From a virus (taxonomy: Duplodnaviria; Caudoviricetes), in the IMG/VR virus record IMGVR_UViG_3300038312_000096, positions 1-57,928 of that record: a stretch of 57,928 nt of DNA, one strand, 5' to 3'. The stretch's first letter is position 1, and every line of letters starts with the position of its first letter. Under the pieces are notes generated by a model. The model was not told the origin of the DNA. It worked only from the letters and a program-made list of their open reading frames with translations, and searched no databases. Shown here piece after piece: positions 13,796 through 38,666 of this stretch. The position numbers and the translations under genes are program-made.

Positions 13796-13869
13796 GCCTC
13801 TTTAGTTTAACGGTAGAATAACTGCCTTGTAAGCAGTGGGTGTGGGTTCAATTCCTACAAGAGGCTCCA
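13796..13869 (+). tRNA. tRNA-Thr(TGT) with encoded CCA
   Basis: Acceptor GCCTCTT/AAGAGGC; anticodon arm ACTGC-CTTGTAA-GCAGT; T loop TTCAATT. Confidence 0.92.
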
Positions 13870-26532: not shown

Positions 26533-26853
26533 GTGGCTAGAATTGCAAAAACGTCTGTAACTGTGGGGGGAGAGGAATTAATCCTCTCTCTCAATTTTAA
26601 TATCATGTGTGACATTGAGGAACATTTTGGGAAATCTTTATCTGCTATCTTTGCCAATGAAGAAACGGTTGGGCTAAAGGTTATCAGGGATTTAATCTAT
26701 CTTACAGCGAAGAAATTACACAAAGACATGACACCAGAAAAAATTGGCGACCTCATGGAGATTGAGGAAATCACAGACTACACCGAAGCAATCGTGAAGC
26801 TGATTACGCTTTTCAATGGTGAACCAAAAAACGTCAAAGAGGGGGAGGAGTAG
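26533..26853 (+). CDS. Tail assembly chaperone (gpG)
   Basis: Between tube and tape measure genes; slippery site near the 3' end. Confidence 0.85.
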   Translation: MARIAKTSVTVGGEELILSLNFNIMCDIEEHFGKSLSAIFANEETVGLKVIRDLIYLTAKKLHKDMTPEKIGDLMEIEEITDYTEAIVKLITLFNGEPKNVKEGEE

Positions 26854-27140
26854 ACCCTTCCCCTCTTACTAACTGGTCGTCTTTGTTGGCTACAGCGTAC
26901 GAGATGGGTATACCTGCGGGTGAGTTCTGGGAGATGACGATGTGGGAGTTTGACGCTTGTCTTGATGGCTACACACAGCGAAAAAAATCATTTCTATATG
27001 ATTTGTTGACTGCTGCTTGTGTTGTCGCTAACAAAATCCCCAACTTTAGCGACCAACCTTCACAATTATTGACACCAGACCGCCTGCTCGGCCTCGAACC
27101 AGATTATAGAGAAATAGAAAGTTTAGACGACTTAGAATAG
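26826..27140 (+). CDS. Tail chaperone gpGT extension via -1 frameshift
   Basis: A AAA AAC at 26826-26832 followed by a strong hairpin; the -1 frame is open into EFWEMT.WEF. Confidence 0.85.
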   Translation, partial: KKRQRGGGVDPSPLTNWSSLLATAYEMGIPAGEFWEMTMWEFDACLDGYTQRKKSFLYDLLTAACVVANKIPNFSDQPSQLLTPDRLLGLEPDYREIESLDDLE

Positions 27141-27150
27141 GAGGTGAATC

Positions 27151-30100
27151 ATGGCATTAGATTTAGGTACTATATTCGTGAAAATCGGCGCGAAAAACGA
27201 CGAACTAATGAAAGCTCTCTCTAAGTCGGAGCAAGCTCTCGAGAAGTTCGGCTCTAAGATGGAGGGAATCGGCAGAACTCTTTCTCTCCGTATCACAGCG
27301 CCTCTTGCAGCGATAGGCTACAAGGCAACACAAATGGCTGGAGAGGTCGTAGAGAGCGAAAACTTATTCTCGGTTGCTATGGGCAAAATGGAGACCGCAG
27401 GCAGGAAGTTCACCAACGCCTATGCTAAGTCACTGGGACTCAACGAGTATGAGATGCGTAAGCAGATGGGTACATTCAAAGTCATGGCTGAATCAATGGG
27501 GCTTACTGAACAAGCGGCTTATGATCTTTCACAAGGCTTTACTACCCTGGCTTATGACCTTGCTTCCTTCTACAACATCTCTTTCGAGTCGGCATTTGAG
27601 AAGTTACAAAGCGGTATGGTTGGAATGGTGATGCCGCTTCGCGAACTAGGCATCAACATCAATGAAACTACAGTCGAAGCGTACGCTCTTAGAGAGGGTA
27701 TCATTAAACAAGGAGAGTCACTTACAGAATCTGGCAAAGTCCTCGCACGTTACGGTGCTATTATGGAGCAAGCACGCAAGGCACAGGGAAACCTCGCTAG
27801 AGAAATAGACAACCCCCTCTCTAAGCAACGTATACTACAAGAACAAGTAAAAGCACTAAAAAAAGAGTTCGGTGATGCCCTCCTACCAATGTTTAATAAA
27901 CTCTTAGACGTTGCAGGCAGAGTGGTCGAGAAGCTAAAAGACATGACCGAAGCGTTTAAGAATCTTTCTCCCGAGGTTCAAGAAACATGGATAAAGGTCG
28001 GTCTTTTTGTTGCCTTGTTAGGTCCCGCGTCCCTACTGATCGGTGGACTAACTAAAACTCTTTCTTCCCTTACAAGCATCCTAAAAGGAGTAGGTGCAGC
28101 TTTCACAGCTGTTGCTGCGTTTGCAGGGAAGGTAGCTTTTGGATTCCAAGCAGTTAAGGCAGGGGCTGCTACAATCGGAGAAGCAATCAGCTTTGCGCTG
28201 GGGCCTCTAGGTCTGTTTATAGCAGGGCTCGGGATTGTGTTCGCACTCTACAAGGCGATCGATTATCTGACATACAAAGTATTTGACGGAGAGATAGTCG
28301 ACGCTAAAGTAAACCAATTCCTAGCTAATATTAATTTTTTAGGCAAGGGCGAGATGTACGCCAGCGCTGCTCAGAAAGCACTTGACGACCTCGAGAAGAA
28401 AAGAAACGGAACTAAAGAAAAATCAAAAAACAGCCTAGCTGCTGTTGGTGAAGAAGTTAAGGGTCTATACAACGAAATCTTGAAGGGTCTTGATTTAGGG
28501 CAATTCGTCAATAACTCGACCAAGGACGCCAAGAAGTCCATTGATGAGATTTATGGTTCCTTGCAAGGTGTCCTCTGGCAGAACTCAGTAGCCGCCAAAA
28601 ACATGGGCAAAGAATTTGACAAGCTTGGCGAAGATGCTAGTGCGTACGAGTCTGCCTTGAGAGAAGCTTTCGCTAATGGCCTCGACCCTTCTAATAGTAG
28701 TGTTGGCAGGAAAATCCTAGACGGCTGGAAGCAAGTGCTAGACGACATCGAGACCCAAGCTAGGGTCGATCTGTTAAATATCTATGACAGCATAGAGATG
28801 TTCCTCCCCACTAAAGACGGAAAACATCAAACTGCTTCTTTCGGCCTTGACTTAGAAGACCTTCTCAATCTCCCCGACGAACAGTTCGGTGAGTTTATTA
28901 GCTCGGTAGGCTTAGCAAAGAAGGCAGCTCAAGAGCTGGACAGCGCTTTCGTCCTCGGGCTTCTCGACGCCACAGATATGTGGGCAGGCTACCAGGATAT
29001 TCTCAAATCTTTGTCAGATAGTCTTCTCGGTGTCTATTCTTCTTTAGGCGAAGGACCTGCAAAAGAAGCCATTGGCGAGCTATTGCAAAACATCAACGCT
29101 AGCTATGGCGATCTTGAGATAAACATTAAAATAGCCAATCAAGATAAGTTCGAAGCTAATTTAAAAGATTCTATCGAGAAAGCTATAAGAAGCAGCATAA
29201 TCATTGACACCAAGACAGGCGAGCAAATACAAAACCCTAGAAACGCTCTAAAAGTCTACTCTGACGCCCTCTCGCAGTATCTAAGCGCAGGCTTCTCTGA
29301 TAGCTCAAACTTCGCTTTAGAGCTGAAGAATAACATCATGGCAGCACAAAAAGAAGTTGGCAAACTAGACTTCTCAGACGCTATCAGAAAAATCGAAGAC
29401 GATCTTGAGGCAGGGTTAAACCAAACCGCCCTTACTGCACGCACTACAATCGCTAAAGGCGGAATGTTTGACTCGCTCAAATATCAAGCTGACTTATATG
29501 AAAAAGCAATCCTCGAGCGCCAATCCTTGATGATCCAAGAAGGGAAATCAATAGGCGAAGTGATGTCTGCCACCTCAGAGTGGACTCAGAAGCTCAGAGA
29601 GCTGAATATCCAAATAGACGCTGCTGCCAAAAAGAAAATATACAAAGACTGGCAGAAGTCGATGCGAGACCAAGCGCTAAGTCAACTGCCGATCGCAGGG
29701 AAGGCTTTCGGTATGTCGGAAAGCACTTCCAAAGCGTTCGCTGCTGGTGGTATGTCTGCCTCTGTGGGTGGAGTAGTCGGTGCGTTGATAGCCTTGGCTT
29801 CAGAGAGCGAATCTTTCAAACAAGCACTAGCTGTTATAAACCCGATCCTTCAATCTGCTTCTGACGCACTTGGCAGACTCCTAGAACCTCTACTCCCTGT
29901 CACGGTAGTTCTCTCAAGCACTCTCTCACCTGTTCTTGATGCGCTCGGAGTTATATTAAGCACAGTCTTAGAGCCTGCACTCGCAGCAATCTTCCCAATT
30001 CTAAAGCTTCTAGGTGTGGCGATGATGAATGTCGCTTATATCTTCAACTGGGGACAATTACAAGTAGCCAAGATGCTAAGCAGTGCCTTCCAGTGGCTAG

Positions 30101-30495
30101 CAAGCCTCCCTCTTGTCGGCAGGTCCTTCCGTGACCTAGCAGAAGCTTCAAAAGCAAAGGTTGACGAGTTGAATGGAAAGCAGACCGACCTTTCTCAGTC
30201 TATGCAAGATTTAATTAATCTAAGCTATGAGGAAGCAAAAGCGAAGGCAAAACTCGCTGACACTGCCAGGGAAGTATCAGAAGCTTTAAGAAACGTACCA
30301 AGCGGCTTTAAGATCGCTCTCAGACGATACCAAGTAAGTGACCCGACAACAGGAAGTTATCAACCTACCTCGCAGACACCTATCTTTGTCAATTTCAACG
30401 CCCCAATCTTCGGTATGGACGACTTCGAGCAAGAAGTCAAGGGAATCATGCGGAACGCTACTAGGTCGAATTCTCTCGCACTTAACGGCATATAG
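27151..30495 (+). CDS. Tape measure protein
   Basis: 1114 aa, helical and Ala/Leu-rich; canonical position. Confidence 0.93.
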   Translation: MALDLGTIFVKIGAKNDELMKALSKSEQALEKFGSKMEGIGRTLSLRITAPLAAIGYKATQMAGEVVESENLFSVAMGKMETAGRKFTNAYAKSLGLNEYEMRKQMGTFKVMAESMGLTEQAAYDLSQGFTTLAYDLASFYNISFESAFEKLQSGMVGMVMPLRELGININETTVEAYALREGIIKQGESLTESGKVLARYGAIMEQARKAQGNLAREIDNPLSKQRILQEQVKALKKEFGDALLPMFNKLLDVAGRVVEKLKDMTEAFKNLSPEVQETWIKVGLFVALLGPASLLIGGLTKTLSSLTSILKGVGAAFTAVAAFAGKVAFGFQAVKAGAATIGEAISFALGPLGLFIAGLGIVFALYKAIDYLTYKVFDGEIVDAKVNQFLANINFLGKGEMYASAAQKALDDLEKKRNGTKEKSKNSLAAVGEEVKGLYNEILKGLDLGQFVNNSTKDAKKSIDEIYGSLQGVLWQNSVAAKNMGKEFDKLGEDASAYESALREAFANGLDPSNSSVGRKILDGWKQVLDDIETQARVDLLNIYDSIEMFLPTKDGKHQTASFGLDLEDLLNLPDEQFGEFISSVGLAKKAAQELDSAFVLGLLDATDMWAGYQDILKSLSDSLLGVYSSLGEGPAKEAIGELLQNINASYGDLEINIKIANQDKFEANLKDSIEKAIRSSIIIDTKTGEQIQNPRNALKVYSDALSQYLSAGFSDSSNFALELKNNIMAAQKEVGKLDFSDAIRKIEDDLEAGLNQTALTARTTIAKGGMFDSLKYQADLYEKAILERQSLMIQEGKSIGEVMSATSEWTQKLRELNIQIDAAAKKKIYKDWQKSMRDQALSQLPIAGKAFGMSESTSKAFAAGGMSASVGGVVGALIALASESESFKQALAVINPILQSASDALGRLLEPLLPVTVVLSSTLSPVLDALGVILSTVLEPALAAIFPILKLLGVAMMNVAYIFNWGQLQVAKMLSSAFQWLASLPLVGRSFRDLAEASKAKVDELNGKQTDLSQSMQDLINLSYEEAKAKAKLADTAREVSEALRNVPSGFKIALRRYQVSDPTTGSYQPTSQTPIFVNFNAPIFGMDDFEQEVKGIMRNATRSNSLALNGI

Positions 30496-35864: not shown

Positions 35865-36365
35865 GTGTATATCTTTTTAGCGATTATTCTGCTATTAGCT
35901 GGGTGCATGGGGCCTAGGCAGGTTATTGTTCCTGATTATATAGCCCAAAAAGCTTTAGCCATAGCTACCGAGCAAATCGATAAACCGTATGTTTGGGGTG
36001 GGCGAGGTCCAGACACTTTTGATTGCTCAGGGATAATAACCTGGTCTTACAAAAAAGCAGGTGTGAAAAATTTCTCTTTGGGAGACACTCTTTGCGATGA
36101 TGTAAACGCAACTCAGTTATATAAATATAATATAGTTTTAGTAGATAACAAAAACGTAAAACCAGGTGACATAGTTTTTATTACGTACGACACAGAGCGT
36201 ATGACTCACTGCGGACTGTTTGTCAAATGGATTGACGATAAAGAGTTCGAGTTCATTAACGCGTCTAGCTATTACGGAGAAGTGGTTATCGACACATGGT
36301 CTATTTCTGAACAGAAAAGGGGGCAGCGGTTCGCTGGATTCGGCCGACTGAAAACATTTTACTAA
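35865..36365 (+). CDS. NlpC/P60 (C40) peptidase lipoprotein
   Basis: Lipobox LLAGC; PYVWGG..FDCSG; PGDIVF; THCG. Confidence 0.9.
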   Translation: MYIFLAIILLLAGCMGPRQVIVPDYIAQKALAIATEQIDKPYVWGGRGPDTFDCSGIITWSYKKAGVKNFSLGDTLCDDVNATQLYKYNIVLVDNKNVKPGDIVFITYDTERMTHCGLFVKWIDDKEFEFINASSYYGEVVIDTWSISEQKRGQRFAGFGRLKTFY

Positions 36366-36386: not shown

Positions 36387-36401
36387 ATTGAGGTGATTGA
36401 G

Positions 36402-36656
36402 GTGGAGCAATACCCAGAGAGACTAACCCGAGTCGAGAATCGACTTGACAACGTTGAAGCGAATATTGCAGAGATTAAAGCTGAGGTCAAACAATCTGCG
36501 ACTAAGAGTGACTTGGCAGGACTGAAAGAATACTTTTCCGATAGAGATAAGCAGTATAACGATAAAATGTGGAAGCTCATTTTCGGGCTTCTTCTTTTAT
36601 TTGGCGGGCTTATGGTCGTAATGTTTGGGATCAAAGAAATACCCAAACTTTTTTAG
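36402..36656 (+). CDS. XhlA-like holin/membrane protein
   Basis: ERLTRVE coiled coil plus C-terminal transmembrane segment. Confidence 0.7.
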   Translation: MEQYPERLTRVENRLDNVEANIAEIKAEVKQSATKSDLAGLKEYFSDRDKQYNDKMWKLIFGLLLLFGGLMVVMFGIKEIPKLF

Positions 36657-36669
36657 GAGGTGGTGACTT

Positions 36670-37089
36670 ATCAAGACTATTGAGGAGCAACTTGTCCTGC
36701 ACGAAGGGCTAAGAGCTAAAGTCTATAAATGCCCTGCTGGCAAATGGACTATCGGAGTGGGCAGGAACTTGGAAGATCGAGGTATCACCAATGACGAAGC
36801 ACTCTATCTGCTACGTAACGACATTTATCAGATTATCGACTCCCTAACCGCTAAATACACATGGTTTACGTACCTTGATCCAGTGCGTCAAAAAGTATGT
36901 ATCGACATGGCTTTCAACCTGGGCATGGGTGGCTTCTCCAAGTTCAAGAGCATGATTCGTGCGTTAGCGGTCAAGGACTATCAAAAAGCGGCGAAGGAAA
37001 TGGAAGATTCTGCTTGGTTTAGGCAGGTCGGACAGCGAGGTCGCAGGCTGGCTGAGATGATGCGGACAGGCGAAGATTATAAGGAGTGA
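36670..37089 (+). CDS. Endolysin, T4-lysozyme-like (GH24), apparent ATC start
   Basis: HEG...VYKCPAGKWTIGVGRNL lies upstream of the ORF-track start; MAFNLG; DSAWFRQVG.R. Confidence 0.88.
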   Translation: MKTIEEQLVLHEGLRAKVYKCPAGKWTIGVGRNLEDRGITNDEALYLLRNDIYQIIDSLTAKYTWFTYLDPVRQKVCIDMAFNLGMGGFSKFKSMIRALAVKDYQKAAKEMEDSAWFRQVGQRGRRLAEMMRTGEDYKE

Positions 37090-37093
37090 TTAA

Positions 37094-37417
37094 GTGAAAG
37101 TATTTAAGATTATAGGGTTTATCCTCTCTTTGGCACCTGTACAGGGTGCTATTGTTACGCTATTTTTGTTTTACCTAGGCAAGTTATTTGTTAAGCACAA
37201 GTGGCTGAAAGGAATTGCTGAAATAGCTGTCGATTCGTACGAGTTCGCCGAGGAACAGGGGAAGGCTCAATTACTGAAGGGTTATGAAAAGTTCGATCCG
37301 TTCATGGATCGGTTTATTAAGCAATTTAGAGAGAAATATGGCTATGACCCTTTGCCTGGCGACAAAGGCATGGCTGTTGCAGTAATGGAAGAACAAGTAA
37401 AGAAGGAGCATCTTTGA
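37094..37417 (+). CDS. Holin-like membrane protein (LL-H-like) with candidate +1 frameshift extension to 37532
   Basis: N-terminal transmembrane segment; AEEQG..G.EKF; ends AAGGAG CAT CTT TGA. Confidence 0.65.
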   Translation: MKVFKIIGFILSLAPVQGAIVTLFLFYLGKLFVKHKWLKGIAEIAVDSYEFAEEQGKAQLLKGYEKFDPFMDRFIKQFREKYGYDPLPGDKGMAVAVMEEQVKKEHL

Positions 37418-37518
37418 GGTAGCCAAAAAGGAAACAGACGCAATATTTGATAAGTGGATTGCTGAAGGGAAAACACAGAGAGATGAATTATTAAACAAAG
37501 TTATAGAAGATATGAAAC

Positions 37519-37548
37519 GGAGACATCCTTAGGGGTGTCTCTTTTTTT
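37519..37548 (+). terminator. End-of-late-operon terminator
   Basis: GAGACATCC-ttag-GGGTGTCTC followed by T7. Confidence 0.85.
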
Positions 37549-37685
37549 GTTCTACTCTTTGGGTAGATTACATAGTTTAAAACGAGGTTGAAAATAGGTA
37601 GAATTGTAGGTTATCTCATTCAACCAGTAAACGTTGATTTTATAACGTTTAAGAGAAGTATTAAAAAAGTATAGGAGGATGGAGT

Positions 37686-38292
37686 GTGGATGAAAATAAT
37701 TTATTTGAATTAGGAGTAAGCTTGTTGGGGCTGGGAGTGGGTACGAGCATTCTCTTCCCTCAATCCTCAACACTGATTTATACCTCATATTTATTCGGTG
37801 TTTCTGCAATACTATACAAAGTATTGAATCTAAATAAGTGGCCTCGATTCTTTCGTGCCTGTGGATTATGTGTAAAAGAAGATAAAGATATTCTCTCCCC
37901 CCTCGCTCATAGAGCGAACTAAGACTAGTTACGGTTACTGTTTACGTTTTAAGCCTGTTGCTGGGCTAACCACTAAAGATTTGATTGCCAAGCAAGATAA
38001 GTTTGAGGAATTCCTTAATGCCAGAGTTGAAATTAGTTATTGGAATAAGAATATCTTTGTCAAAGTGTTTGACTCCAACTCGCTAGAAAACGACTTTGAA
38101 CTCGTTGACACCAAAGGAATAGTGGAGCTAGTGATCGGTCGTGGCTACCGAGGCGTAGAAACTCTCGACCTGTCCGCATCAGAAAGTAACGTCCACCTGC
38201 TTATAGCAGGGACGACAGGAGGAGGGAAGACCTCTCTACTGAGGTCTATTATAACCACTCTAATAGCTACTAAAGACCCTAAAGAGTTAAAG
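37686..38292 (+). pseudogene. FtsK/SpoIIIE-like ATPase, frameshifted near 37900 and truncated
   Basis: Transmembrane N-terminus; HLLIAGTTGGGKT; stops before Walker B at the junction. Confidence 0.8.
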
Positions 38293-38666
38293 CAATTCCT
38301 TTTCTCGACTAACTCAAGAAGCACAAAGTTTAAGCTTAATGACGCAGATAGGCTTTCTATGCCGGCAATATAAATATCAACGTTCCAATCTTTGATTCCA
38401 GATGTATTTACAAGCTCATAAATCGCACCGGGCAGATGCTTATTTACTTCGTCAGCGATAGTCCTTTTAACCGAAACAGGACATAGCCACAATATACAGT
38501 CTGCTTTTTGGTCTTGTATTCTTGTCACGGCTAAATCTAATGCAGTTCTGGTTTTCCCTGTCCCCATATCCATATACAAGGCACCAACTTTAGTCTTTGA
38601 TAACTTATCAATAGCCTTTTGTTGATGTTCCATTGGTTTAGTCGTAAAGGTCAGCAAGATTATCAC
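38289..38666 (-). pseudogene. SNF2-like helicase N-terminal fragment
   Basis: HQQKA, MDMGTGKTRT, LCPVSV; lost just before the DEx motif. Confidence 0.8.

Follow-up and report, generated by a model that had tools for sequence, protein, structure and literature searches.

The stretch of DNA analyzed here, referred to throughout as the window, is a complete viral record of 57,928 bases (IMGVR_UViG_3300038312_000096, Caudoviricetes), and the subject of this analysis is the last gene of its lysis cassette, which encodes a small membrane protein and is followed, directly past its stop codon, by a short open stretch in a shifted frame and then by a terminator (Table 1). The 3' end of this open reading frame (ORF) reads AAG AAG GAG CAT CTT TGA. 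An earlier reading made from the letters alone (the sequence-only reading) had pointed to this ending as a Shine-Dalgarno (SD) element placed just before a CTT-TGA site, and had described the +1 frame beyond it as open for 38 codons, with a single methionine five residues before its end and a stop inside the terminator; each of these elements was indeed found as described. The +1 frame is closed by a TAA at 37398-400, opens at 37401 and then runs to the TAG at 37530-32, which sits in the loop of the terminator hairpin. After the site it translates as EVAKKETDAIFDKWIAEGKTQRDELLNKVIEDMKRRHP, and the only ATG, GTG or TTG in it is the late ATG, at 37512. Since the frame is closed five codons before the stop codon of the gene and offers no start, the extension can be reached only from the 0 frame, within 37401-37417, and since it opens only four codons before the CTT, the room for a shift is narrow. 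Considering these features together with those of the relatives described below, we think it likely that a prfB-type programmed +1 frameshift occurs at the 3' end of the gene, which would then yield two isoforms of 107 and 145 amino acids.

Table 1. Features of the lysis cassette and of the proposed shift site in the window.
Feature	Position	Strand	Remarks
NlpC/P60 protein	35865-36365	+	Late region; listed with the lysis cassette
XhlA-like small membrane protein	36393-36656	+	First gene of the cassette; C-terminal transmembrane segment; weak matches to XhlA PF10779 (E 0.014) and PHROG 689 holin (E 0.0022)
Phage lysozyme (endolysin)	36667-37089	+	Pfam PF00959, E 1.9e-6; stop-to-stop frame
Short-form gene	37094-37417	+	107 amino acids, GTG start; last gene of the lysis cassette, directly after the endolysin gene
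SD-like AAGGAG	37403-37408	+	Exactly 3 nucleotides 5' of CTT (spacer CAT); spacing as in prfB
Proposed shift site, CTT_T and 0-frame TGA	CTT 37412-14, TGA 37415-17	+	In frame with 37094
+1 extension	37416-37532	+	38 codons and TAG; long form of 145 amino acids if shifted, junction ..KKEHL-EVAKK..
Rho-independent terminator	37519-37549	+	End of the lysis (late) transcript; 10-pair stem 37519-37542 and T run

Within the window, a +1 frame that stays open for at least 38 codons past the stop is no rarity, as it was found behind 49 of the 199 mechanical ORFs of at least 60 amino acids. The motif RGGRGNNNCTTTGA occurs twice against 0.12 expected occurrences, a count of two being reached in 2 of 100 shuffles, and its other copy is out of frame; among the 82 ORFs of at least 100 amino acids, one ends in CTT TGA. 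Because long open +1 frames are so common here, the single sequence is suggestive at best, and the weight of the argument rests on the relatives. Two further candidates were tried in the window and rejected, namely, that TGA is a sense codon (it ends 21 of the 82 long ORFs) and that an RNA structure downstream of the site acts as stimulator (z 0.35). The terminator itself folds at -17.2 kcal/mol (z -4.9), and none of 200 shuffles was as stable. The only RNA run that was matched (X13) spans 36660-36812, which is 5' of the shift site.

Relatives of the protein were collected from several sources. At E ≤ 0.001, a word-indexed search recovered nine family proteins among 19 candidates, and 68 representatives were found among 1.84 billion, 26 of them at E ≤ 1e-10; in 50,697 phage records, tblastn found nothing that matched the fused form or either of two family members. 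The called family proteins all end where the short form ends, many of them in ..GK or ..L, and the closest relatives (P0004-P0007, 66-90% identical) end in KEHL, KEHL, RERL and LEKK, respectively. Loci were drawn from viral, genome and metagenome collections (15 loci), from one more virus (L044) and from a sample of 401 genomes, 21 of which had a match (L021 and L022); in the class and order of the genome that holds L022 (six genomes), no further loci were found. All counts that follow refer to a close set of 18 loci with an intact 3' end, the window included, from which L017, being truncated at the 3' end, was left out. A distant chromosomal subfamily (18 loci: L020, L023-L039) was likewise excluded from all counts; by eye, it showed no conserved extension in a shifted frame, no systematic test having been made. 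The proteins of this subfamily are about 115-125 amino acids long (..DIVDYIEEHYKEWGIKG..RAEA.VQRARR..), come from 18 loci in 18 of the 401 sampled genomes, all of one phylum, had no Pfam or NCBIfam match, and are apparently encoded at a chromosomal position 5' of a gene starting MKD(I/V)K...

In the close set, a conserved coding stretch in a shifted frame lies directly behind the gene at all 18 loci, in one of three configurations. The first, with CTT TGA and a +1 extension, is that of eight loci (the window, L003, L009, L010, L013, L014, L021 and L022). In the second, seen at four loci with two distinct sequences (L004, L005, L011 and L012, hereafter the L004 group), the ending is AAG GAG CGT CTT CAG, the 0 frame continues for eight codons, the CAG included, and the homologue of the window's extension starts, in the +1 frame, right after CTT_C. 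In the third, comprising six loci (L006, L007, L008, L015, L016 and L044), an in-frame heptamer of the type X XXY YYZ lies in the overlap, and the extension is in the -1 frame. Of the 12 loci with a +1 extension, 8 retain CTT TGA and 11 have an SD-like element three nucleotides before the CTT, these 11 including seven of the eight loci of the first configuration. The exact AAGGAG-N3-CTT recurs in L022 and in the L004 group, and its place is taken by AGGGAG in L009, by AGGGAT in L010 and L014, and by GGGGAT in L013. The protein of L022 is only 31% identical to that of the window, yet the last 18 nucleotides, AAGAAGGAGCATCTTTGA, are identical. Considering that CTT is a minor choice for leucine (12 of the 79 other leucine codons in eight family genes, and none of 10 in the window gene), and that TGA makes up 21 of 82 stops, the repeated CTT TGA is not predicted by codon usage. 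The base after TGA is C in five of the eight loci (L009, L010, L014, L021 and L022), G in the window and L003, and T in L013. Each extension ends just before a terminator, as judged partly by eye.

The heptamer was found at all six loci of the third configuration, as G GGA AAG (L006, L015), G GGA AAA (L016), G GGA AAC (L044), A AAA AAA (L007) and C CCT TTC (L008); the first of these is the heptamer of lambda G/GT. The -1 peptide is start-less and conserved (..PLDPRE.PH[VI]K.I..RIRRR), is distinct from the +1 extensions, and runs up to the SD of the following gene, whose product has a signal peptide (3' ends of the family gene, e.g., L006:3290-3401 and L044:2318-2420). These sister lineages sit in Mu-like prophage contexts. 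In L044, a strong hairpin lies 6-7 nucleotides 3' of the heptamer (z -6.65), those of L007 and L016 are marginal, and elsewhere none is significant. The third configuration is probably a programmed -1 frameshift. In one protein, P0034, a -1-type peptide is fused in frame, which indicates that such an extension can belong to the same polypeptide.

As judged by substitution patterns, the extension frame is under purifying selection. In five +1 loci with one type of extension (L009, L010, L013, L014 and L021, hereafter the L009 type; 93 nucleotides), the ratio of nonsynonymous to synonymous differences (pN/pS), summed over pairs, was 0.27 in the extension frame versus 1.03 and 1.22 in the other forward frames. 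The variable columns in the same loci numbered 14, 12 and 23 at codon positions 1, 2 and 3, respectively, and synonymous changes (GAC/GAT, AAA/AAG, ACT/ACC) appear from the very first codon after CTT_T. In the -1 loci, the ratio was 0.38 versus 1.11 and 2.49, calculated over 45 nucleotides in five of the six loci; L016 was left out for its lack of an LDPR start, as were the last three codons, which overlap the SD of the next gene. Moreover, the extension frame is the only one of the six frames that is free of stops in all 10 of the +1 loci examined. The possibility that the constraint stems from an antisense gene was rejected, since one antisense frame had a pN/pS of 0.40 but contains stops in 8 of the 10 loci. 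Extensions homologous to that of the window occur in the L004 group and L022 (z 15.4, 7.3 and 9.9; 0 of 5000 shuffles).

The reality of the site was checked against other assemblies. The same site is present in another viral contig, L003, and three additional runs, each of a different study (X6, X9 and X12), gave contigs that span 37412-17 with no indel, these being contigs and not raw reads. The contigs of X6, X9 and X12 differ from the window only by a G>A change at 37419, which is V-to-I in the +1 frame, and by a T run of the terminator that is one residue shorter; L003 has R at extension codon 2 and a change of ATA to ATC that is synonymous in the +1 frame. The alleles V, I and R at extension codon 2 and the synonymous ATA/ATC pair all preserve the +1 frame. 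The sequence-only reading had named an indel in the raw reads that makes one continuous ORF as one of the findings that would speak against it; no indel was present at the site in any of these contigs, and the arrangement is therefore not an assembly slip. In a related explanation, the gene would be a dead end: a once longer gene would have lost its C-terminus, through either a fixed frameshift mutation or a mistake in assembly, and the +1 ORF would be a remnant in decay. A single T in the TTT run makes the difference, and the start-less lysozyme gene and the truncated FtsK-like ORF nearby, described further below, make some regional decay conceivable. However, the indel-free arrangement of L003 and of the three other studies, its reach into lineages at 31% protein identity, the purifying selection on the extension, and the finding of no continuous long ORF of the window type among the relatives all argue against decay, which we regard as highly improbable.

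It was also observed that the X12 contig matches the window only from 37385 on, i.e., over the shift site, the extension and the terminator (95-99% identity), and that 5' of this point it carries a different body of the family gene; the X6 contig and L003, in turn, cease to match the window after 37566, shortly beyond the terminator. The 3' module of site, extension and terminator seems to travel as a unit.

A number of findings weigh against a +1 frameshift and have to be set beside those in its favor. The sequence-only reading had proposed that homologous 3' ends be aligned for a conserved SD-N3-CTT-TGA and for purifying selection on the +1 frame, and this comparison came out mostly in its favor, but with exceptions: L021 lacks the SD-like element, in the L004 group the CTT is followed by CAG and not by a stop, and in some loci an ATG is found in the +1 frame, six codons before the CTT in the L004 group and L022. 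In the window itself, the base 3' of TGA is G (TGA G) and not the C of the weak terminator UGAC, and the AAG GAG codons also encode a conserved K-E of the 0 frame, so that the SD-like element is not an independent signal. The window's extension type is shared only with the L004 group and L022; its homology with the L009 type (group C) is unproven at z 0.3-2.1, and for this reason the two +1 types have been treated as separate. Among 79 proteins, none was an in-frame fused homologue of a +1-type extension, and a search for longer relatives returned none, although this is weak evidence. Lastly, the sampled loci are few, share descent, and all come from metagenomes.

Several of these points favor the main rival, which holds that the +1 ORF is a separate small overlapping gene with its own initiation, which may be non-canonical or coupled, and that its product is a free cytoplasmic peptide of about 40-49 amino acids. 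Given the upstream ATG in the L004 group and L022, and the CAG in place of the stop in the L004 group, the peptide could indeed be a separate protein of 46-49 amino acids there. An ATG also precedes the CTT by two codons in L013 and by 16 codons in three relatives of the group-C type (P0081-P0083), whose ORFs have been called as proteins of 46-47 amino acids, and gene callers have recorded such small ORFs (P0080-P0083); the failure to find an in-frame fusion of the +1 type agrees with this as well. On the other hand, no ATG, GTG or TTG precedes the conserved part in the window, L003, L009, L010, L014 and L021, and the +1 frame of the window is closed by the TAA five codons before the stop. Where an ATG is present, its position varies (2, 6 or 16 codons upstream), and in L010 and L014 the corresponding ATG is immediately followed by TAG. 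The SD spacing, judged by eye, is poor, with GGAG 13 nucleotides before the ATG in L004 and only a GGA about 15 nucleotides before it in L022. Furthermore, the coding constraint starts at the first codon after CTT_T, and a separate gene gives no reason for the conservation of CTT TGA. On balance, a separate gene appears unlikely.

The long form could, in principle, also be made by a route other than an SD-stimulated slip of tRNA-Leu at CUU_U, such as slippage of RNA polymerase on the T run, read-through, or hopping. The extensions of the family do sit behind varied motifs, including a run of eight A residues in L007, and the L004 group has a run of seven A residues just 5' of its AAGGAG. Polymerase slippage normally needs longer runs, however, and the window has only three T residues in a row and no A run. 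Read-through of the TGA in the 0 frame would add only 10 more codons, which by eye are not conserved, and any such route would leave the exact match to the prfB cassette unexplained; we give it almost no credence.

If the frameshift is of the prfB type, its course may be pictured as follows. Most ribosomes would stop at the UGA and release the short form of 107 amino acids, while some would pause with the UGA in the A site, awaiting release factor 2 (RF2). During this pause, the AAGGAG would pair with the anti-SD of the 16S rRNA three nucleotides behind the P site and strain the P-site complex, and the P-site tRNA-Leu would slip from CUU to UUU. The 38 codons of the +1 frame would then be read, giving a form of 145 amino acids whose additional tail would be charged and helical, with a basic cluster at its end. 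In known holins, timing is tuned by charged termini, and by analogy the tail of the long form may tune the timing of lysis. The shift itself, its efficiency, its dependence on RF2 and the setting of lysis timing by the isoforms are what we infer from the arrangement. The frameshift put forward in the sequence-only reading is supported by the comparison of relatives, namely, by the conserved CTT TGA, by the conserved start-less extension under selection, and by the -1 heptamer in the sister lineages. As further suggested in that reading, the ratio of the two forms might sense RF2, and the forms might act as holin and antiholin.

That reading had also called the gene a holin gene. The window protein had no Pfam, PHROG or NCBIfam match, the number of Pfam families being zero even at E ≤ 1, and it matched no release factor family. 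Among 17 family members, however, two matched PF09682 (Holin_LLH), with a best E of 8.9e-5. The AlphaFold2 (AF2) model (pLDDT 91.2) places helices at residues 2-12, 14-58, 63-82 and 88-105, and its predicted fold is an N-terminal transmembrane helix that runs into a three-helix domain. Fold searches with Foldseek in the viral set and the PDB returned nothing at E ≤ 0.001; of the top 50 viral entries, 12 were named holin, three of them of the LL-H family, with TM-scores of 0.45-0.57 and all at E > 0.2. Among the neighbors in a protein language model (Atlas), 19 of 30 belonged to clusters in which 12-25% of the members carry PF09682. The family gene follows an endolysin-type gene in the window as well as in L004, L006, L007, L008, L009, L013 and L022; the endolysin was assigned by Pfam in the window only, the other seven being judged by the appearance of the product. 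Like the proteins of Holin_LLH (PF09682, Phage_holin_6_1), the short form has about 107 amino acids, one N-terminal transmembrane helix and a helical C-terminal domain, and its gene lies beside that of an endolysin; unlike them, the window protein itself falls below the threshold of the family profile. From the weak PF09682, fold and language-model leads and the place after the endolysin, the protein may at best be called a remote relative of the LL-H-type holins, and the holin label of the sequence-only reading is kept in this weaker sense. We know of no recoding in LL-H-type holins.

The textbook example of programmed +1 frameshifting in bacteria is the shift at a CUU UGA preceded by an SD. 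In the available part of PMC12421855, the prfB motif is given as a CTTT slippery run with an SD-like element three nucleotides before it and a TGA in frame. The site of the window resembles prfB in its SD-like purine element, the three-nucleotide spacer, the CTT, the in-frame TGA and the continuation in the +1 frame, and it needs no downstream RNA structure either. It differs in that the product is a membrane protein of 107 amino acids and not RF2, for which reason there is no autoregulatory loop; in that the site lies at the 3' end, after a complete functional protein, whereas that of prfB lies at codon 26; in that the shift would add a tail of 38 amino acids, whereas in prfB it rescues the whole protein; and in having G and not the conserved C after TGA, and AAGGAG and not AGGGGG. 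In the available text of PMC10885494, the supplementary tables being outside this scope, every +1 case in RECODE with CUU and a stop is a prfB gene. The frameshift of tail assembly chaperones (lambda G/GT, P2 E/E+E') is similar in that two products of a phage gene share the N-terminus but obtain different C-termini through a shift close to its 3' end, with a product ratio set by the shift efficiency; the difference is that the window gene encodes a membrane protein of the lysis module and would shift by +1 at a stop codon, not by -1 at a heptamer. As far as PMC3091744 was available, the frameshift of P2 concerns its tail genes E/E+E'. The window has a tail assembly chaperone pair of its own (26533-27140), 5' of the tape measure gene (27151-30495), in which the first ORF contains CCA AAA AAC at 26824-32, a site from which the -1 frame continues without a stop into the second ORF (26883-27140); the pair has the canonical -1 frameshift of the G/GT type.

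There are also precedents in lysis. Lambda S105/S107 are holin and antiholin made from one gene by a dual start; similarly, one gene for a lysis membrane protein in the window would give two isoforms from one mRNA in a fixed ratio, but these would differ at the C-terminus by recoding, and not at the N-terminus by two starts. For +1 recoding at the 3' end in a tailed phage, precedent is provided by Listeria phage PSA, in which such shifts occur in the capsid and tail protein genes at another slip codon. In phage MS2, a link between frameshifting and lysis exists, as expression of the lysis gene depends on a frameshift in the coat gene, according to the available part of PMC10885494. That shift ends translation of the coat so that ribosomes start the separate lysis gene, and unlike the one proposed for the window it makes no isoform. 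Full-text literature searches, within the portions of the papers that they returned, gave no report of recoding in a holin or lysis-cassette gene. The class of mechanism is known; within the reach of these searches, both its placement behind a phage gene for a lysis membrane protein, at the 3' end, and the apparent interchange of +1 and -1 shifts in a single family are new.

If the frameshift is real, recruitment of the prfB cassette by an unrelated gene family would make it a portable regulatory module, and the sister lineages with a -1 heptamer at the same place would render this recruitment more striking. Recoding would also be a third route to two isoforms of a lysis protein from one gene, beside dual starts and separate antiholin genes. 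As the ratio would depend on the efficiency of termination, the sensing of host physiology by lysis timing would become directly testable. For annotation, small 'hypothetical' ORFs and 'intergenic' stretches behind holin genes may in fact be recoded extensions. A more general proposal, which we advance tentatively and regard as rather doubtful, is that a whole family of LL-H-like holin genes of uncultured phages obligatorily makes two C-terminal isoforms by recoding, and that its lineages have exchanged one device for another without a change of codon position, using either a prfB-like +1 site (SD-N3-CUU-UGA) or a -1 site like that of lambda G/GT (G GGA AAG); in the +1 lineages, the ratio of long to short form would report the capacity of the host for RF2-dependent termination and would thereby couple lysis timing to the translational state of the infected cell. 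In that event, the prfB cassette would for the first time be seen at work in a gene other than prfB, and it would form a lysis clock of a new kind.

Some features of the neighboring genes deserve mention. L022 carries a homologue of the XhlA-like gene at the same place of the cassette. The lysozyme frame has no ATG, GTG or TTG at its 5' end (region 36654-36672); it opens with CTT ATC AAG right after an in-frame TGA, and AGGAGGTG lies 6-9 nucleotides 5' of the ATC. The lysozyme homologue in L004 has an ATG at the matching position (MPSIEEQL..), and the start region in L003 has the same letters as the window. The lysozyme gene may thus use a non-canonical ATC start or have another oddity of initiation. 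Just past the late terminator, an ORF of 130 amino acids on the plus strand (37981-38373) contains no more of an FtsK/SpoIIIE domain than the P-loop part (E 3.7e-9) and overlaps a convergent ORF of 173 amino acids on the minus strand (38145-38666); it looks like a truncated gene. The phage genome has a single tRNA, a tRNA-Thr with anticodon TGT, at 13796-13869. Finally, one member of the family, P0022 (240 amino acids), is fused in frame to a second protein with a transmembrane segment and a coiled coil, and this partner is a separate gene two places downstream in L006 and L007; the fusion hints that the proteins of the lysis cassette act together.

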